64,000 nucleotides of DNA from Patescibacteria group bacterium (GTDB lineage: Bacteria > Patescibacteriota > Patescibacteriia > UBA9570). Of this stretch, positions 42,748 through 59,011 are shown piece after piece. Within the stretch, counting starts at the first letter, position 1. The number at the start of each line of letters is the position of its first letter. A program made the translations under genes and the position numbers. The notes beneath the pieces were generated by a model, which was not told the DNA's origin, searched no databases, and was given only the letters and a program-made list of their open reading frames with translations. Location of the stretch: assembly GCA_041665365.1 (NCBI GenBank), contig JBAYIY010000001.1, forward strand, positions 104,720 to 168,719, in the 5' to 3' direction.

Positions 42748-44028
42748 ATGAATCAACCCATTCAAACCGTTCAGGTTAAGATAGTCGACCTAAACCCTGC
42801 CCCCTATAACCCGCGGCGCTGGGACGAAGCAGCCAAAACTCATCTCAAAGACAGCATTCAGCGCTTTGGCTTAGTAGATCCAATTATTGTTAATAATAAT
42901 CCAGACCGTCACAATATTGTTATCGGAGGACATTTCCGGCTGCACATTGCAAAAGAACTAGGATATGTAGAGGTGCCCGTGATCTATCTCAATATCGCTG
43001 AGGTTGCCAAAGAAAAAGAACTTAATCTTCGGCTCAACAGGAATGTGGGGTCATGGAACTTCGAGTTGCTTAAAGAATTTGATCTGAACCTCTTGCTCGA
43101 TGTTGGATTTGATGATGCAGACCTTTCTATCATTTGGGATGAAATGTTAGAGGTAGAAGATGATCACTTTCATACCCAAAAAGAATTCAAAGAAGCACAA
43201 CATACTACTATTCAAGCTGGTGATTTGTTTGCGCTCGGTGATCATCGCGTCATTTGTGGTGACGCTACTCAACCCGAGGTGATTCAAGCACTGCTAGGAG
43301 GTCAGCATGTACAGATGATTTACTCTGATCCCCCATACAACATTGCCTTAAATTATTCTAAGGGTATAAGCACCCAAGGCAAGTATGGCCATAGCCAGCT
43401 GAATGATCATCAATCCGATTCTGAGTATCAACTATTTTTACAACGTTCCCTAGAAACCGCGTTGACAGTACTGGATGATGCAGGTCATGTGTTTTACTGG
43501 TGCGATGAGCGATATATTGGCTTGTTGCAGCAACTGTATACCACAGTAGGGATCAACCACAAACGGGTCTGTCTTTGGATTAAAAACAACCACAATATGA
43601 CTCCCCAAGTGGCATTTAATAAACTATATGAACCATGTGTCTACGGCACTCGTGGTAAACCTTATCTGGCTGAAATTAAAAACCTGCACGAAATTCTGAA
43701 CAAGGAAGTGGGTACCGGCAATCGCGCTATTGATGATCTCCAAGACCTCTTAAATATTTGGTTCGAAAAACGCCTGCCTGGAATGCAATATACACACCCC
43801 ACTGAAAAGCCAGCTACCCTACATGAAAAGCCCATACGCCGTTGTACTAAGCCCGGTGACCGTATATTGGATAGCTTCGGAGGTTCTGGTTCAACGTTAA
43901 TCGCCTGTGAACAACTAAAGCGGGTAGCCTATGTAGCTGAAATCGACCCTATTTTTACACAATTAATACTCAATCGCTATGAACAACTTACTGGAAATAA
44001 AGCCAAACAGCTCAACGGAACTAAATGA
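42748..44028 (+). CDS. ParB-like nuclease domain fused to N6-adenine/N4-cytosine DNA methyltransferase
   Basis: 426 aa. N-terminus VKIVDLNPAPYNPRRWDE...IVIGGHFRLHIAKELG (ParB/Srx fold), DPPYN catalytic motif, C-terminal SFGGSGSTLIACEQLKR (SAM-binding motif I). This architecture is common in phage. Confidence 0.75.
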   Translation: MNQPIQTVQVKIVDLNPAPYNPRRWDEAAKTHLKDSIQRFGLVDPIIVNNNPDRHNIVIGGHFRLHIAKELGYVEVPVIYLNIAEVAKEKELNLRLNRNVGSWNFELLKEFDLNLLLDVGFDDADLSIIWDEMLEVEDDHFHTQKEFKEAQHTTIQAGDLFALGDHRVICGDATQPEVIQALLGGQHVQMIYSDPPYNIALNYSKGISTQGKYGHSQLNDHQSDSEYQLFLQRSLETALTVLDDAGHVFYWCDERYIGLLQQLYTTVGINHKRVCLWIKNNHNMTPQVAFNKLYEPCVYGTRGKPYLAEIKNLHEILNKEVGTGNRAIDDLQDLLNIWFEKRLPGMQYTHPTEKPATLHEKPIRRCTKPGDRILDSFGGSGSTLIACEQLKRVAYVAEIDPIFTQLILNRYEQLTGNKAKQLNGTK

Positions 44029-44749
44029 ACCACAACAGTTAGGTTACCACTACGTCATGTGTGGCGATGCTACTAATCCAACTGATGTCGCTCAACTGAT
44101 AGGAAAACAGAAAATTAATCTAGTACTGACGGATCCACCGTACGGAGTTGGCTATGTAGAAAGTAAACAAGGTTTTCAAACTCTTCGTCATGAAAAAGTG
44201 ATCGCTAATGACCACGTCCAAAGCGAAGAGGAATATCAAAACTTTATGGAGCAATGGCTAAAACTGACAGTGCCGCATTTAGCCAAACGGAATGCTTTCT
44301 ATGTATTTAACTCAGATAAGATGCTATTTGCCCTCCGCCGTGCCATGGATAACCACAAGTTACACTTTGCTCAGTTACTAATCTGGATGAAACAACATGC
44401 TGTTATTGGTCGCTTAGATTACCTGCCACAACACGAGCTCATTATGTATGGCTGGTACGGCACGCATCGTTTCTATAAAAATAAAGATAAGTCCGTCCTC
44501 TTCTGCCCAAAGCCGCAGCGGAGTCGCCTGCACCCAACCACCAAACCAGTGAGTTTGCTACGCCGCCTCATACTGAATAATACCCAGGTGGGTGACGTTG
44601 TGTACGATCCCTTTGGTGGCTCAGGGTCGACGCTGATTGCATGTGAACAAACCCAACGCCGTTGTCTCATGATGGAACTTGATCCAGATTATTACACGAC
44701 GATTCTACAACGCTTTGAGCAGCACATTTTGAAATATGGGGATCAATAA
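43979..44749 (+). CDS. DNA methyltransferase (DPPYG; beta-class N6/N4)
   Basis: 256 aa. HYVMCGDATN, LTDPPYGVGY, DPFGGSGSTLIACEQTQR. Paralogous to the MTase domain of the upstream gene. Overlaps that gene by 50 bp. Confidence 0.75.
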   Translation: MNNLLEIKPNSSTELNEPQQLGYHYVMCGDATNPTDVAQLIGKQKINLVLTDPPYGVGYVESKQGFQTLRHEKVIANDHVQSEEEYQNFMEQWLKLTVPHLAKRNAFYVFNSDKMLFALRRAMDNHKLHFAQLLIWMKQHAVIGRLDYLPQHELIMYGWYGTHRFYKNKDKSVLFCPKPQRSRLHPTTKPVSLLRRLILNNTQVGDVVYDPFGGSGSTLIACEQTQRRCLMMELDPDYYTTILQRFEQHILKYGDQ

Positions 44750-44751
44750 AT

Positions 44752-45189
44752 ATGGAACCTAAACACAAGAGAAGAATGACCATTGAAAAACGTCAGCAAA
44801 CCCAAAAGGACGCCTTAATTGAACTACTGAAGAAAACACCCATCATCCAAGCGGCTTGCCAAAAGATGGAGCTGGGACGGGCTACCTACTATCGCTGGCT
44901 AAAAGATGACCCAGCATTTGCAGAGGCAGTACACACTGCACTCGACCATGGCGTGGGACTGGTAAATGATATGGCAGAGTCGCAGTTAATTTCTGCGATT
45001 AAAGATCAAAATATGACGGCCATCATCTTCTGGCTAAAACATCACCACATGGCTTATACAACACGTATTGAATTGACGGGCGGTCAATCTACGGATCTGC
45101 CTGAATTAACTCCAGAACAGCAGCGTGTAGTTCAAGTTGCTCTTGAACAAGCACGACTCCTAAATAATGAGTCACCACAGATACTATGA
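44752..45189 (+). CDS. Terminase small subunit-like HTH protein
   Basis: 145 aa. AACQKMELGRATYYRWLKDDPAFAEAV is an HTH, with the gene directly upstream of terL and overlapping it by 4 nt. Confidence 0.45.
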   Translation: MEPKHKRRMTIEKRQQTQKDALIELLKKTPIIQAACQKMELGRATYYRWLKDDPAFAEAVHTALDHGVGLVNDMAESQLISAIKDQNMTAIIFWLKHHHMAYTTRIELTGGQSTDLPELTPEQQRVVQVALEQARLLNNESPQIL

Positions 45190-46733
45190 ACACAGCTGAA
45201 CAATTTGCGATTATCAGCAGCACAAAATCGGTACGGAAAGCTATAACAATGCAATCGCATTTTTGGTTTTTTCATGTTTACCTTAATCAATATATCACCT
45301 ACGAAACGGCGCCGTTTCATCGAGAAATGTTACAGCTGACTGAAAACCCACAATTGAGTTTATTGGTCTTTATGGCGTTCCGGGGTTCTGGCAAATCCAC
45401 TATCTTATCCTTGTCCTATCCCTTATGGGCCTTGCTAGGGAAGAAAAAGAAACGCTGTATCTTAATTTTAAGTCAGACCCAGTATCAAGCGCAGTCATTA
45501 TTGCAGCACATTAAACATGAACTGGAGGAAAATATTTTATTACGTAAAGATTTTGGACCATTTGTCACACGCACTACGCAATGGAGCGCGGACACCATTG
45601 TTATTCCTCGGTACGATGCCAAAATTATTGCTGCTTCTACAGAACAAAGTATTCGTGGAATTCGTCATGCAGAAGTAAGGCCCGACCTCATTATTTGTGA
45701 TGATATTGAAGATTTGTCATCAGTTAAAACCATGGAGTCAAGAAACAAAACATTTCAATGGTTAAGTGGTGAAATCATCCCTGCCGGTGACCGACACACG
45801 CAGACCGTCATTTTAGGAAATTTACTACATGAAGATTCCTTGCTGATGCGGATCAATAAACTGATTGATGATGACCGGATTGATGGTATTGTAAAACGCT
45901 ATCCCATCATCTCAGAGGGCAAACCTTTGTGGGCTGCTAAATTTCCTAACGAAGCGAGTCTGGTTCAGGAACAGCGTAAGATTGGTAATCCCATTGCCTG
46001 GAAACGCGAATTTGAATTACAAATTGTACCCGAAGATGGACAAGTCATTAGCTATGATGATATTCATTATTACGACACACTCCCTGAACCCAAGGAACCA
46101 GAACAGCGAGAGCTGGATGATTACACAAATGTTATCCGTTTAGAAAAGGTCTGTACTGGTATTGATTTAGCCATTAGTAAAAAAGACTCTGCAGACTATA
46201 CAGCAATGGTTTCTATTGAAATATTTAGTTTTGAGCACGAGGAAATTAAATTCTATGTGTTGCCGCACCCTATCAATAAACGTCTTAGTTTTGCCGAAAC
46301 GATTGAACAGGCGGATAATATTAGTAAACGTTTAGGTAAAACGCATCCTACTCAACTCTACGTCGAGCAGGTAGCTTATCAGGCTAGTGCTGTGGAAACC
46401 CTCAAGGAACGTCGTCTGCCGGTGGAAGGCATTACTGTGACCGGGGCAGATAAACGAGCCCGATTACAAATCGTCTCACCTTTGATTGAACAAGGCCAGA
46501 TCCTGTTTCCACGTACGGGTGCAGAGGATTTAATTGCCCAAATCGTTGGATTTGGAGTAGAGCGCCATGACGATTTACTAGACGCCTTTACCTTAGTCAT
46601 CATGCAGGTGATGAATATGCGGCCAGCTTGGCAGCTAAGTGATATGAATAATGAACCCATTAAACGGATGCGCATGTACAGTAAATGCGTACCAGGAGGC
46701 TACTTTGATCCCCCAAACTGGAACATTATCTAA
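45186..46733 (+). CDS. terL: Phage terminase large subunit
   Basis: 515 aa. Walker A FMAFRGSGKSTILS, Walker B LIICDDIED, and a C-terminal RNaseH-like nuclease (TGIDLAISKKDSADYTAMV ... DDLLDAF). Confidence 0.75.
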   Translation: MNTAEQFAIISSTKSVRKAITMQSHFWFFHVYLNQYITYETAPFHREMLQLTENPQLSLLVFMAFRGSGKSTILSLSYPLWALLGKKKKRCILILSQTQYQAQSLLQHIKHELEENILLRKDFGPFVTRTTQWSADTIVIPRYDAKIIAASTEQSIRGIRHAEVRPDLIICDDIEDLSSVKTMESRNKTFQWLSGEIIPAGDRHTQTVILGNLLHEDSLLMRINKLIDDDRIDGIVKRYPIISEGKPLWAAKFPNEASLVQEQRKIGNPIAWKREFELQIVPEDGQVISYDDIHYYDTLPEPKEPEQRELDDYTNVIRLEKVCTGIDLAISKKDSADYTAMVSIEIFSFEHEEIKFYVLPHPINKRLSFAETIEQADNISKRLGKTHPTQLYVEQVAYQASAVETLKERRLPVEGITVTGADKRARLQIVSPLIEQGQILFPRTGAEDLIAQIVGFGVERHDDLLDAFTLVIMQVMNMRPAWQLSDMNNEPIKRMRMYSKCVPGGYFDPPNWNII

Positions 46734-55348: not shown

Positions 55349-56122
55349 TCATTCGCTTCGACCTACTACCACATTATTATGCTGCGTAACAAGCTCTGGT
55401 TTAATCTTTTGACGCTTAAAAATCGTATTGGGAACACCAGGTTGTTCAAACGCTATTTTTTCAACAATAATCTGGTAAATGGATGCAAAAATATCCTCGT
55501 CAGAAAATGTTAGTCCAGCTTTCTTTTTGAGGGCACGGCGTAAGAGATTACCAACCTCTGTGGAATAAAGGTACTTGCACAGATTATTTGGCTCGAGTGC
55601 CTGAAACCGAAGCCAGAAATCATCCAGCTCATTTTTCAACATGCTGCGTTTGGTCATCATCGCAAAATACTCAATGGATTGTTTGAGTTGGGCTTTATCC
55701 TTGAGGTCAAATGAACAGATGCGTTTATGCGTAATCGGTTTTTTAAAGACTACTCGATACAGTGAAAAGACTCTGCCGTTAGTGAGTAACACCCAGTCTA
55801 CACCTTCATTAGCGGCATAATTAATGGATTGGTAAATATGCTTATCCGACAAATCAATCTGGATAGCTTTCACTTCAACGATGATATACTTTTTGCGTTG
55901 GACTTGGATAATGTAATCAGCGTAGGTATTATTGATCTGGTACTCTGTTTTAATCTCATCCAGTTCAGCATAACCCAGTACCTCTGTTAGAAAACTATTA
56001 ATCATCAGGCGAGTAGCTGACTCATCTAACGTCTCGTATTTCTTCGACAGGTAACGCTTAGCATACTCTTTGAGTCGTTTAGCTATTTGGTCTTTTTGAG
56101 TTTGTGTAGGCATAGTGATCAA
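55349..56122 (-). CDS. Restriction-endonuclease-like (PD-(D/E)xK, HsdR-N/Mrr-type) protein
   Basis: 257 aa. ADYIIQVQRKKYIIVEVKAIQIDL (D...EVK core) plus VDWVLLTNGRVFSLY. Confidence 0.45.
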   Translation of the reverse strand: MITMPTQTQKDQIAKRLKEYAKRYLSKKYETLDESATRLMINSFLTEVLGYAELDEIKTEYQINNTYADYIIQVQRKKYIIVEVKAIQIDLSDKHIYQSINYAANEGVDWVLLTNGRVFSLYRVVFKKPITHKRICSFDLKDKAQLKQSIEYFAMMTKRSMLKNELDDFWLRFQALEPNNLCKYLYSTEVGNLLRRALKKKAGLTFSDEDIFASIYQIIVEKIAFEQPGVPNTIFKRQKIKPELVTQHNNVVVGRSE

Positions 56123-56125
56123 AAG

Positions 56126-57058
56126 TTATAAGGAAAGCATTAACTCACCCTCAACTAGTCCAGCACGAATGCTCGGGTGGATAGATTGGTATTCAGTATT
56201 ATCCTGCATAGTTTGGTAGATGGGCTGAAACTCTAAGTTTTCCCAGTTAAACTTTTCAAATGTCTCTTTTCCCATCTGCAAACCAACTGCATCTTTTATA
56301 GATTCAGCTCCAAATTCGTCAACGAATGGCACCTGGTAAGAGATGTCAACATACTCTACCCCATCAACCCTGAAAGCCTCCTGACCAAATTTGATGAAGT
56401 CAGTATATGTATCTTCGACTAAGTCTTGCTCGTCCCAAAAGGTATCTTGTGTACGTGTTAGCCATGCTGTCTTATATTCCTCGTCCCATTGCACATCATA
56501 ACCATTGCGTGTCCTGATGCTATCGTCTAAAGCAATCCAGAGTTTATCTAGTGTCGTTGGTTCCGGCTTAGGTTCTTCTTTGACTTCTTCAACCACAGCG
56601 GGAGCAACTTCTTCTTGAACGGGTTCCTGGACCACATTGGTATTTGATACAACGGGAGCATTAACTACATCTGCCGTATTGGTATCTTCGTTTGGTACCA
56701 CTTCGTTCGTATTCACTACTGCGTTAGTAGCTACGTTGGTATTCTTATTAGTGTTTTGAGCTATTTTAGCTGTATTGTCCGTCGAGCTCGGAAAAGTAAA
56801 TATTGATGCTGCAATGAAAAACGTACCTATAAAGAAAGCCATGAGACGAGGTATTTTTTTATGAATTATACTCTCAAACCATTGACGTGATGGTGGAAGC
56901 AGTAACAACCCGAGCAGTAGCATGGCTAGTCCTGATACAATGCTGCTAAACACGAGCAAGATACTGATGAATATAATGACGATGCCAAATACCCATCCAA
57001 GGATGTGGTTACCTTCTTTGGCGGAAGGTGTTGTGACTTGCGAATTTTCGCTGGCCAT
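56126..57058 (-). CDS. Membrane protein with N/T/V-rich low-complexity region, hypothetical
   Basis: 310 aa with two N-terminal TMs. NTNKNTNVATNAVVNTNEVVPNEDTNTADVVNAPVVSNTNVV. Confidence 0.45.
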   Translation of the reverse strand: MASENSQVTTPSAKEGNHILGWVFGIVIIFISILLVFSSIVSGLAMLLLGLLLLPPSRQWFESIIHKKIPRLMAFFIGTFFIAASIFTFPSSTDNTAKIAQNTNKNTNVATNAVVNTNEVVPNEDTNTADVVNAPVVSNTNVVQEPVQEEVAPAVVEEVKEEPKPEPTTLDKLWIALDDSIRTRNGYDVQWDEEYKTAWLTRTQDTFWDEQDLVEDTYTDFIKFGQEAFRVDGVEYVDISYQVPFVDEFGAESIKDAVGLQMGKETFEKFNWENLEFQPIYQTMQDNTEYQSIHPSIRAGLVEGELMLSL

Positions 57059-57384
57059 ATTGTTGTGTAGTTAGGGATTTGTTAGATTGGTTCAGAAAAC
57101 ACAAAGGGTCCCCTGAACCAGCGACAGCCCTTACGGAACTGCCACCCATCCTTTCGAATGGGTACCCTAACTACAAGATGCTGATCAGGAGACCTTCTCT
57201 ACGTAGTTAGGGATTTATAACCATGCCGCTGGAAATCAACGGTTTAGGCCATTAAATTGTATTTAAAGTATAGCTTGAAAAGCACCAGAAAGAAAGTCTG
57301 GGATTTTGAAGTTACCAACAATCACCCCATTCAAGCCACGTGCAAGCATGTGGGGTTTTAGACCCAAACTGGGACACTGACTCA

Positions 57385-57413
57385 CAAAACAAAAATCCTC
57401 GCGGTGTACGAGG
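57385..57413 (-). terminator. Rho-independent terminator downstream of tRNA-Gln
   Basis: Minus sense reads CCTCGTACACCGCGAGG (hairpin) followed by ATTTTTGTTTTG. Confidence 0.5.
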
Positions 57414-57466
57414 ACTTTTGAGAGGATGAGGTTGATGGGTCACCTCCAGAACTTTCTGAAATCAAG

Positions 57467-57539
57467 CTGGGGCGGTAGGGTTCGAACCTACGAAATGGCG
57501 GCGCCAAAGGCCGCTGCCTTACCACTTGGCTACGCCCCA
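57467..57539 (-). tRNA. tRNA-Gln(UUG): tRNA-Gln (anticodon TTG)
   Basis: Reverse complement TGGGGCGTAGCCAAGTGGTAAGGCAGCGGCCTTTGGCGCCGCCATTTCGTAGGTTCGAACCCTACCGCCCCAG. It has a U1:A72 start, as in E. coli tRNA-Gln. Anticodon stem GCGGC/GCCGC, loop CUUUGGC, and a GTTCGAAC T-loop. CCA is not encoded. Confidence 0.8.
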
Positions 57540-57595
57540 ATGTAAATAAACGCTATTTGTATATACCATATACTTGTTTTGTGTTCAAGTGATTA

Positions 57596-58097
57596 CACCT
57601 ATCCCCCGGCCCCTTTCCTAAACAGGAAAGGGGTGTTAGACTACGGTTAGAAAAGCGCTGCCGAAGTTTGGGGCGCTATTATGTTAATACAGGGTTATCA
57701 TCCACATAAACTTAGCTATGATCGCAAACTACGATCAATCGCTGAACAATTTAGAGATAATGCCACTGAGGCTGAACAACTCTTATGGAAAAGTTTAAAA
57801 GGTAAACGTTTAGGCTATAAGTTTCGCCGACAACATCCTTTACATGGATTTATTGTTGATTTTTATTGTTATGAATTAATGTTGGTAATTGAACTAGACG
57901 GTCCAATTCATCAAGATCAAAAAGAACGCGATTCTTTAAGAGATATAACCTTATCCCATCATGGCTTCAAAACATTGCGCTTCAGTAACGAAATAGTACT
58001 AACTGAATTACATTCAGTTATAAAAAAGATTTTCGATCACACTTCTTCCACCTCCCCCTTTCCTGCATAGGAAAGGGGGCCGGGGGGATAGGTGTTC
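57596..58097. mobile_element. Small cassette: DUF559 endonuclease gene flanked by about 24-bp terminal inverted repeats
   Basis: Left CACCTATCCCCCGGCCCCTTTCCT (57596-57619). Right AGGAAAGGGGGCCGGGGGGATAGGTG (58072-58097). Each end also forms a local hairpin (CCCCTTTCCTAAACAGGAAAGGGG; CCCTTTCCTGCATAGGAAAGGG). Confidence 0.45.
57681..58070 (+). CDS. DUF559 (Vsr-like very-short-patch-repair endonuclease fold) domain protein
   Basis: 129 aa. ATEAEQLLWKSLKGKRLGYKFRRQHPLHGFIVDFYCYELMLVIELDGPIHQ...DSLRD...GFKTLRFSNEIV matches the DUF559 pattern. Confidence 0.7.
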   Translation: MLIQGYHPHKLSYDRKLRSIAEQFRDNATEAEQLLWKSLKGKRLGYKFRRQHPLHGFIVDFYCYELMLVIELDGPIHQDQKERDSLRDITLSHHGFKTLRFSNEIVLTELHSVIKKIFDHTSSTSPFPA

Positions 58098-59011
58098 TAC
58101 ACCTTCAAGTATCTCCCAATCGAAAGCATACTACTCCCCAAAGCCAGCGCTAATGATATTAAGAATTGGCTCAGAACAATAATCCAGAAATTACTCAAGA
58201 AAAATACATTCAAGCTGAAATTATAGCCGGCAAAAAAACTATCGACATAAGGTGAAGCGGAAAATACGGTGATGGCTAAGGCCACAGTGGCTAAGGTACA
58301 GGCACAGACGGCATACAAAACACCTTCCCATAAGAAGGGGGCACGAATAAACCAATTAGTGGCTCCGACCAACTTCATAATCCCCAACTCTTCTCGGTGA
58401 GAATAGATGGCTACCCGAATGGTGTTATATAACATAATTACCGATATCAACACAAATATGCCACTAATCAATAAACCACCTTGATAAATCCGTTTGGTAA
58501 TTTCGGATAATTTCGTAATGGCGGCTTGGTGATCAGAAAAATTCTTCTTATCCACTAACACATTATATTCGGATGCCGAAAAAGCATCACTAATTACTTG
58601 GTAGTTATCCAGGTCATTAGATTGCACACTAAGTGTGGCTGGTAACGGGTTCTCATCTAGTTCACCTAAGGCCGCTTGAATATCAGGATCATCGGCATGA
58701 GTTTCAGTAAAGCTAGACAAGGCTTCCGCTTTGGAAATATAACGCACATTGGTCACTTCGGGTAATGATTCTAAATAAATTTTAGCTTTTAATATATCGC
58801 TTTCATCCGTACTGGCTTTAAACGTGAAATCAATATTGATTTTTTCCTCAACGGCATTAATCGCTTGGTCGGCCACTAAATTTAGCGTGCTCACTAAACC
58901 AACAATAAATAAGGTTAACGATAAAATCAGAATGGTGATACTGGAAATCCAGAGGTTTCTCCAAAAATGTTGAGTGGCATACTTAGTCGTGCGCGTTATA
59001 AAAACCAACAT
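58097..59011 (-). CDS. ftsX: Cell-division ABC transporter permease FtsX
   Basis: 304 aa. N-terminal TM, a large periplasmic loop and 3 C-terminal TMs. Directly follows ftsE. Confidence 0.75.
   Translation of the reverse strand: MLVFITRTTKYATQHFWRNLWISSITILILSLTLFIVGLVSTLNLVADQAINAVEEKINIDFTFKASTDESDILKAKIYLESLPEVTNVRYISKAEALSSFTETHADDPDIQAALGELDENPLPATLSVQSNDLDNYQVISDAFSASEYNVLVDKKNFSDHQAAITKLSEITKRIYQGGLLISGIFVLISVIMLYNTIRVAIYSHREELGIMKLVGATNWFIRAPFLWEGVLYAVCACTLATVALAITVFSASPYVDSFFAGYNFSLNVFFLSNFWIIVLSQFLISLALALGSSMLSIGRYLKV

Follow-up and report, generated by a model that had tools for sequence, protein, structure and literature searches.

A DUF559 nuclease-like gene framed by BoxC/PIT/TM-type triplex motifs in a Patescibacteria genome: a possible partnership of repeat and enzyme

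The DUF559 locus

A gene of the DUF559 family, framed on both sides by a short structured repeat, lies between a tRNA-Gln gene and ftsX in a 64-kb stretch of a Patescibacteria genome (contig JBAYIY010000001.1), which is referred to here as the window. The gene (57681–58070, + strand) is the single open reading frame (ORF) between the repeats, as a preliminary description of the locus had stated, and it encodes a protein of 129 residues. The ORF matches the Pfam profile PF04480 (DUF559) with 111 bits and E = 2.9e-32, the gathering cut-off being 20.6, and on this basis the product is predicted to be an endonuclease-like protein of the Vsr fold, related to PD-(D/E)XK nucleases. The NCBIfam match is of the YcjD type, and a Patescibacteria metagenome-assembled genome carries an annotated protein that is 100% identical. 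The left boundary of the interval is tRNA-Gln(ttg) (57466–57539, − strand). It had been placed directly beside the cassette and lies 55 nt from the left repeat. The right boundary is ftsX (58097–59011, − strand), and a single nucleotide (58096) separates its stop codon from the right repeat. Both boundary genes lie outside the cassette.

An imperfect inverted repeat brackets the DUF559 ORF. The left arm covers 39 nt (57595–57633; ACACCTATCCCCCGGCCCCTTTCCTAAACAGGAAAGGGG) and the right arm 41 nt (58055–58095; reverse complement ACACCTATCCCCCCGGCCCCCTTTCCTATGCAGGAAAGGGG), and the two differ by two 1-nt indels within C runs and in the loop sequence. The preliminary description gave terminal inverted repeats of 24 bp. 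The inverted repeat is real, and its left copy, CACCTATCCCCCGGCCCCTTTCCT, had been located exactly (57596–57619), but the arms are longer than described, and the right copy, AGGAAAGGGGGCCGGGGGGATAGGTG, is situated at 58069–58094, 3 nt further left than the 58072–58097 given for it. A hairpin had been noted in each terminus and is present in both, with perfect stems of 10 bp on the left (−11.2 kcal/mol; z = −3.4 on the + strand and −2.9 on the − strand) and 11 bp on the right (−15.9 kcal/mol; z = −3.8), each closed by a 4-nt loop, so that the DNA fold z-scores range from −2.9 to −3.8. The right hairpin encodes the C-terminal residues of the DUF559 protein (..SPFPA) and its stop codon. The termini are also GC-rich as claimed, at 59–63% compared with 35% for the DUF559 ORF and 41% for the window. 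In 100 shuffles the chance expectation was 0 for the 24-mer repeat and 0 for the hairpin pattern, and no further copy of either was found across the 64-kb window, which holds two units only.

Repeat identity

The preliminary description treated the terminal inverted repeats and their hairpins as separate features. Tail and hairpin instead belong to one known structured repeat. By their sequence, the two units are complete intrastrand triplex motifs of the BoxC/PIT/TM family (G/C-rich class II, C-G-G), because their blocks, linker, and mirror tail fit the published definition (PMC4666352). In this definition a pyrimidine arm, a purine arm, and a third strand follow one another consecutively, the stem has 6–15 nt and the loops have 1–6 nt, and the third strand must mirror the purine arm with no more than one mismatch (PMC4666352). 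The G/C-rich class II motif has been called, in order, BoxC, PIT elements, and TM or TM_ECO (Holder et al. 2015, NAR; PMC4666352).

Both window units contain the three blocks, with stems of 10 and 11 nt, a loop of 4 nt, and a linker of 3 nt (CCG). Earlier work on BoxC and PIT elements is said to include that of Bergler (1992), of Bachellier in the 1990s, and of Hoyne and Maher (2000). On the strand where the hairpin comes first, a unit reads as a pyrimidine arm (CCCCTTTCCT), a loop, a purine arm (AGGAAAGGGG), the CCG linker, and a G-tail (GGGGATAGGT). The left TM/BoxC-type unit (57595–57633) is read on the − strand. Its pyrimidine arm is the reverse complement of 57624–57633, its loop is at 57620–57623, and its purine arm (AGGAAAGGGG), linker, and third-strand tail (GGGGATAGGT) are the reverse complements of 57610–57619, 57607–57609, and 57597–57606, respectively, with two outer bases at 57595–57596. 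The right unit (58054–58095, + strand) consists of a pyrimidine arm (58054–58064), a loop (58065–58068), the purine arm AGGAAAGGGGG (58069–58079), the linker CCG (58080–58082), the third-strand tail GGGGGATAGGT (58083–58093), and an outer GT (58094–58095). Just before it, at 58047–58053, is a degenerate C-tail-like stretch (TCCACCT). Tail and purine arm form a mirror image (G faces G, and A or T faces A) at every position, 10/10 for the left unit and 11/11 for the right one. The ViennaRNA prediction for the units contains the hairpin alone.

The layout and the CCG linker of the window units agree with the type B of TM_ECO described by Holder et al. (PMC4666352). The architecture is identical to the nucleotide, with a C-rich pyrimidine arm, a loop of 3–4 nt, a purine arm, a 3-nt linker (CCG or TTA), and a mirror G-tail that follows G·G-C and A/T·A-T triplets. 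In both cases the units are GC-rich and spread over many phyla, occur singly or as inverted pairs, and appear to be intergenic. The subtype is different. The E. coli consensus is CCCTCTCCC-loop-GGGAGAGGG-(TTA/CCG)-GGGTGAGGGG (PMC4666352), in which the stem has TCT/AGA and the tail TGAGGG, whereas the window units have TTT/AAA in the stem and an ATAGGT tail; the tail changes in step with the stem (ATA versus TGA). The host is different as well: its genome is AT-rich, belongs to the Patescibacteria, and has only two copies in 64 kb. Finally, the published work assigns no associated gene or mobility function to these repeats, and Holder et al., in the last systematic study of them, report neither mobility activities nor a function shared by the neighboring genes (PMC4666352), whereas the units of the window surround a DUF559 gene and, as described below, such framing is general.

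An Rfam search of 56500–58600 returned tRNA-Gln and LOOT RNA only and nothing for the repeats. The hairpins lack T-runs and were not called as intrinsic terminators in a terminator scan. A 7-nt TTCAAGT that occurs on both sides was considered as a target-site duplication, but it stands 5 and 10 nt off the ends and was treated as chance.

The DUF559 protein

The AlphaFold model of the window protein (pLDDT 83) predicts a Vsr-type α/β fold with conserved acidic and histidine residues. With this model, Foldseek gave 3HRL (TM score 0.84, rmsd 2.0) and, as the second-closest solved structure, the catalytic domain of the homing endonuclease I-Bth0305I (3R3P; TM score 0.77), and the match to E. coli Vsr (1VSR) was weak (E = 0.12). 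Profile searches with hmmsearch agreed on the first two (E = 6e-36 and E = 1.5e-5, respectively). In the family alignment the invariant residues are Thr-29, Glu-32, Trp-36, Phe-48, Arg-50, Gln-51, Asp-60, Cys-63, Glu-71, Asp-73, Gly-74, His-77, Asp-84, and Arg-100, among which Asp-60, Glu-71, Asp-73, and His-77 are probably catalytic. The protein contains neither a transposase domain in general nor an HUH/Y1 transposase in particular, and the Pfam search gave no Vsr-family hit. Searches of defense and phage libraries gave weak partial matches to the nuclease core alone (DpdF and mREase_II in PADLOC, and families of unknown function in PHROGs).

I-Bth0305I, the Vsr-fold homing endonuclease of a phage group I intron (PDB 3R3P), shares the catalytic fold with the window protein and is a precedent for this fold in selfish DNA. 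It differs in its extra DNA-binding domains and in targeting a protein-coding gene, whereas the window locus has no intron or intein and has a structured repeat instead. The repair nickases Vsr and VsrA, the latter a DUF559 protein, have the same superfamily fold, and by homology the window protein would like them be a small nickase of the Mg2+ type. Unlike Vsr, it matches PF04480 and not the Vsr family, and it has no C5-methyltransferase partner in the window.

The cassette in other genomes

The closest homologues of the window protein, P0002 (72% identity) and P0013 and P0014 (52–54%), are all found in unrelated gene neighborhoods, next to queuosine synthase and SpoIID, PRPP synthetase and an HD protein, or other genes. 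They have a common layout. On the left side (A)ACACC...C-tail is followed by the hairpin, about 90 nt, a small hairpin with a T-run, and the ATG; on the right side the gene runs into the right hairpin, which is followed by G-tail...GGTGT(T). The preliminary description had named, as the outcome that would reduce the repeats to a terminator pair, that they be unique to this locus and absent from orthologues. This is not what was found, as close homologues carry the same ends.

The small hairpin before the ATG (AGCGC...GGCGCT) is located at 57654–57677 (+ strand) in the window and is followed by ATT and then the ATG; its fold is weak (−6.2 kcal/mol, z = −0.9). A hairpin and T-run directly before the DUF559 ATG are also present in the close homologues L081, L082, and L084/L085, which are cassettes of the candidate-phyla-radiation type. 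Tentatively, this element may shield the gene from read-in transcription, or it may control or occlude the translation start. A promoter scan gave no convincing promoter upstream of the DUF559 ORF.

Relatives of the window were found through FtsX homologues, and the gene order DivIC-SurA-response regulator-DPBB-FtsE-FtsX is kept. In L089, a related member of the Patescibacteria that is the closest relative with a long contig (FtsX 72% identical), the FtsX stop codon is followed after 34 nt by tRNA-Gln(ttg), and this spacer contains no DUF559 gene and no triplex-motif unit. An empty site, which had been suggested as a check on the locus, is present in L089 at the level of gene order. Two other relatives have a methyltransferase gene in the FtsX–tRNA-Gln interval. 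The window cassette is therefore lineage-specific and occupies a variable spacer. Because there are only two units in 64 kb and none in the L089 spacer, the units seem to have come with the gene. The earlier suggestion of a mobile cassette holds in that a discrete cassette of about 500 bp exists, the same ends surround homologues of 52–72% identity elsewhere, and it is absent in L089. The compact repeat-gene-repeat unit behaves as an insertion, and from its sequence context it is probably mobile.

Association across phyla

The pairing of DUF559 with triplex motifs is general across many phyla. A scan of species-representative genomes provided a sample of 80 DUF559 loci that span Bacteroidota, Chloroflexota, Proteobacteria, Cyanobacteria, Patescibacteria, and others. 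Flanking inverted repeats were counted at a score of at least 29 for the 72 genes with enough flanking sequence. They are present at 49/72 DUF559 genes, compared with 1/104 neighboring ORFs of the same loci (Fisher p = 1.5e-24). A ranking bias arising from the hairpin-encoded tail of the query was considered as the source of the association and was rejected (23/37 versus 25/34).

In 393 kb, 104 of the 169 GC hairpins that begin with the pyrimidine arm are no more than 150 nt away from the end of a DUF559 gene. Strict triplex motifs occur at a density of 2.25/kb up to about 200 nt from the gene ends and of 0.075/kb beyond 400 nt, a 30-fold difference. Across loci the tails covary with their stems: the triplex rule is obeyed at 131/132 A positions and 484/493 G positions. 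The match is 0.97 for the real tails and 0.82 for tails permuted among units, and none of 200 permutations exceeded 0.845. At 17/37 loci one stem core is common to both units that flank the gene, where 2.7 would be expected.

Twenty loci have a strict unit on both sides of the gene. The tails point outward at 4 of them, as in the window, and inward at 11, with 5 in other arrangements. The tails-inward loci are mostly from Proteobacteria, and there the G-tail abuts the start codon. Because the orientation is heterogeneous, the units are not simple transposon ends. At two loci from Chloroflexota (L019 and L016), arrays of 4–6 triplex-motif units with periods of about 40–77 nt are situated beside the DUF559 gene, and local amplification of units therefore occurs beside the gene. 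Among open-access papers and bioRxiv preprints, we found none that links DUF559, ycjD, or COG2852 to BoxC/PIT/TM.

Units with and without the gene

Metagenomes were searched with an exact 25-base pattern of the window unit subtype. The further copies that the preliminary description proposed to look for are found in at least 119 metagenome contigs, some of which have several copies, and they occur both with and without the gene. The pattern matched 0 viral contigs. A looser pattern (AGGAARGGGN{0,16}GGGGN{1,4}GGTGT) gave 91 single matches in viral contigs, was judged non-specific, and was dropped.

Among the matches listed, DUF559 is within 700 nt at 30 loci and is absent at 36 others, each of which has 600 nt or more of sequence to either side; 12 of these 36 are tails-outward doublets. 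The commonest arrangement among the same matches is the tails-outward inverted doublet, and 51 of the 63 "−+" pairs are spaced by less than 30 nt. The doublets are composed of two slightly different subtypes, each tail fitting its own stem. They are imperfect palindromes and resemble REPINs in this respect, and some recur on one contig or are contained in a larger element of about 150 nt (L212, L276). The geometry of the doublets follows that of the gene flanks in each lineage, with tails outward in groundwater and candidate-phyla-radiation loci and inward in Proteobacteria and E. coli.

At six loci (L185, L186, L187, L193, L197, and L206) the DUF559 gene is located between direct copies of one subtype (CCCCTTCCCT...GGGGGTTAGGT), and at the gene's 3′ end an inverted unit of the window subtype completes a doublet. 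This layout looks like the expected product of a "gene plus one unit" integrating into a doublet.

In L198, L203, L246, L276, and L298 the doublet is embedded in an inverted-repeat element of about 150 nt (ggctggtgcaaagtc...gactttgcaccagcc), which in L276 forms a tandem array with a period of about 153 nt. The doublet-bearing element looks like a composite element of the MITE (miniature inverted-repeat transposable element) type.

ycjD of Escherichia coli

The DUF559 gene of E. coli, ycjD, adjoins fabI (envM), and it was reportedly in the envM region that BoxC was first noted. Holder et al. trace BoxC to E. coli work of the 1990s (PMC4666352). Downstream of ycjD, at a distance of about 170 nt, is TM_ECO #9, and the ycjD stop codon itself is overlapped by a degenerate BoxC hairpin. 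The stretch that separates ycjD from TM_ECO #9 contains a duplicate of part of the ycjD 3′ end (ggagacggtgctggagaatattc...; L086, E. coli K-12 NC_000913.3, 1351040–1351830). The duplicated fragment and the degenerate hairpin suggest a past rearrangement of the locus. The gene-less TM pairs of E. coli K-12 are mostly tails-inward (Table 1 of PMC4666352), and this is also the dominant geometry around proteobacterial DUF559 genes.

Genomes that lack ycjD were considered as a clean empty site and rejected, as the sapF–fabI interval in them contains the eef efflux operon with its MFS, outer-membrane, and RND subunits (L087, O157:H7; L088, ECNB21-M121), which is a replacement. The ycjD gene with its TM unit and the eef operon are alternative occupants of one site. 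In Leclercia, the unit downstream of the DUF559 gene is 95–97% identical to E. coli TM copies. When this Leclercia gene was used as a query in E. coli, it found ycjD alone (68% identity), plus TM copies, and no other DUF559 gene.

Discussion

The DUF559 protein may be the cognate nuclease of the triplex-motif units, in a partnership like that of REP/REPIN sequences and RAYT, with the gene and its flanking units as an autonomous element. This is the reading that the evidence favors most, and we give it an even chance. DUF559 would be a sequence- or structure-specific enzyme that nicks or cleaves the units. The gene with its flanking units, the autonomous form, would have inserted as a whole between FtsX and tRNA-Gln in this Patescibacteria lineage, and the gene-less single units and inverted doublets would be non-autonomous derivatives on which the enzyme acts in trans. 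The copying would be finished by repair, recombination, or replication functions of the host, because a nuclease of 129 residues could not do strand transfer alone. We infer that the units are bound or cut by the protein and owe their spread to this.

The comparison rests on a shared way of working and not on family membership. In both systems a single-copy enzyme gene is placed between inverted copies of a short structured repeat with a tail and a hairpin, the repeat is also found as gene-less singlets and inverted doublets, and there are no target-site duplications. REP/REPIN and RAYT (TnpA_REP) were reportedly described by Nunvar (2010), Bertels and Rainey (2011), and Ton-Hoang (2012). The systems differ in the enzyme, which here is a Vsr-fold nuclease of about 120 residues and in RAYT an HUH/Y1 transposase, and in the repeat, which here is a three-block triplex motif and there GTAG plus a palindrome; for DUF559, moreover, the enzymatic link is a proposed one. 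Elements of the IS200/IS605 group are likewise small, with subterminal hairpins, no target-site duplication, and structure-dependent recognition of single-stranded DNA. They differ in having no terminal inverted repeats and in their HUH transposase, with or without TnpB, and they have no homology to the window protein or its ends. A classical transposon or insertion sequence with terminal inverted repeats was rejected, there being no transposase and no abutting target-site duplications. A partnership of the REP/RAYT type, or homing into doublets, fits better than such a transposon, because the units also occur tails-inward, as direct copies, and without the gene.

Several observations weigh against an enzymatic partnership. 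No direct repeat that could be a target-site duplication abuts the ends, either in the window or in L081–L085. The units around DUF559 have their tails outward, inward, or in direct orientation, and about a third of the sampled DUF559 genes have no detectable flanking repeat. The ycjD gene is present in 3378/5426 complete E. coli genomes and absent from 38%, in contrast to the TM loci, which are largely conserved among E. coli strains (PMC4666352). The evidence for an empty site comes from gene order in a relative with 72% FtsX identity and does not reach nucleotide precision. A single functional study deals with a DUF559 protein, Caulobacter VsrA, and it points to m5C methylation and not to repeats (PMC12907096). 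The link between gene and repeat could also be mere co-travel without an enzymatic relationship.

The repeats could alternatively be the target of the enzyme and not its product. In such a homing model, pre-existing triplex-motif doublets would be cut by a free-standing DUF559 homing endonuclease, the gene would be copied into the break by repair, and the split doublet would then appear as "terminal inverted repeats." The similarity of the fold to I-Bth0305I is consistent with homing, as are the lack of a target-site duplication, the geometry that gene-less doublets share with the gene flanks in each lineage, and the six loci from L185 to L206, which look like a doublet with an inserted "gene plus one extra unit." However, no pre-existing target is evident at the window locus, where there is no other unit in 64 kb and no doublet in the corresponding spacer of L089. 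The composition of the units is wrong for an AT-rich host, and they appear to have arrived with the gene. Homing also leaves the origin and spread of the doublets unexplained, and we consider it unlikely. A lower probability still is given to a purely regulatory role, in which the GC-rich units would be cis elements (barriers to transcription or replication, RNA-stability hairpins, or autoregulatory binding sites) that restrain a potentially toxic nuclease gene without any mobility. The position of the units directly at both gene ends, the G-tail that abuts the start codon in Proteobacteria, and the further hairpin before the ATG in close homologues would suit such insulators, and PIT elements do block DNA polymerase in vitro (PMC4666352). 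In vivo, however, PIT/TM elements have no promoter or terminator activity (PMC4666352), and the hairpins, which have no T-runs, were not called as terminators. The gene-less singlets and doublets, the unrelated contexts, and the covariation of tail and stem on both strands would remain unexplained.

Similarly improbable in our judgment is that DUF559 is a mismatch or damage nickase of the Vsr type that works with a DNA methyltransferase, as has been proposed for Caulobacter VsrA, the units being unrelated repeats, selfish or structural, that accumulate near the gene or hitch-hike with it on a horizontally transferred fragment. The Vsr-like fold and the CCGG at the linker-tail junction of the window units point this way, as does the SOS response that Caulobacter VsrA gives when ScmA m5C methylation is missing (PMC12907096). 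The CCGG junction is not conserved across loci, however, and the 64-kb window contains no C5-methyltransferase motif but only two N6/N4 methylases, in a prophage-like region 13 kb away. Chance accumulation is also hard to reconcile with a 30-fold enrichment and with flanking repeats at 49/72 genes versus 1/104. Phase variation through recombination between the inverted repeats, which would flip the gene, is very improbable. "DUF559 domain-containing protein" is listed, without comment, as 14-fold enriched among computationally predicted targets of programmed inversion (PMC9881135), an enrichment that the inverted repeats described here probably account for. The gene has no invertase or recombinase gene as a neighbor, inversion of a whole gene with its own upstream region would not switch it, and direct-repeat and tails-in arrangements also occur. 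A coincidental pair of terminator hairpins around an ordinary gene is the least probable explanation and is already refuted. Some structure at the 3′ ends would be expected where FtsX and DUF559 converge at the right hairpin, but the repeats reach past the hairpins into covarying tails and recur around homologues in other contexts and phyla, T-runs are absent, and the chance expectation is 0.

The partnership between DUF559 and the triplex motif would give DUF559 a role and the BoxC/PIT/TM repeats an enzyme, and the gene family and the repeats are tied statistically across phyla. DUF559 is among the most widespread bacterial domains of unknown function and includes E. coli YcjD and the structure 3HRL. 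Catalogs of the BoxC/PIT/TM repeats date back to the 1990s; the repeats are numerous in hundreds of genomes and are associated with local genome instability. If the link is enzymatic, it would provide a second and mechanistically different example of a genome-resident repeat system of the REP/RAYT type, and a natural protein that recognizes triplex-forming or hairpin DNA. A broader proposal, which we regard as tentative and slightly more doubtful than probable, is that DUF559 proteins are the missing enzymes of the BoxC/PIT/TM repeats throughout Bacteria and that together they make up a new kind of mobile or self-propagating DNA driven by a structure-specific nuclease. Such a class would be analogous to REPIN-RAYT but with a Vsr-fold nickase and an H-DNA-forming repeat, and the window cassette would be its minimal autonomous form and a fresh arrival in this AT-rich genome.

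Neighboring features

A full-length match to LOOT RNA (Rfam RF03000) is found just outside the cassette at 57123–57250 (− strand), between an ORF for a membrane protein of 310 residues and tRNA-Gln (71 bits compared with a gathering score of 46; E = 7e-13). A second nuclease-like gene is present 1.5 kb from the cassette. This ORF of 257 residues (55349–56122, − strand) matches HSDR_N_2, the N terminus of the type I restriction R protein, and PD-(D/E)XK_3. Another small free-standing nuclease gene, a GIY-YIG ORF of 81 residues, is located near the FtsEX cluster of a relative of the window genome (L091, 1124–1369, − strand). Further away in the window, the region 42748–46733 (+ strand) contains two N6/N4 DNA methylase genes, the first with a fused ParB N-terminal domain, followed by a gene for a terminase large subunit, and it looks like a prophage or a phage-derived region.

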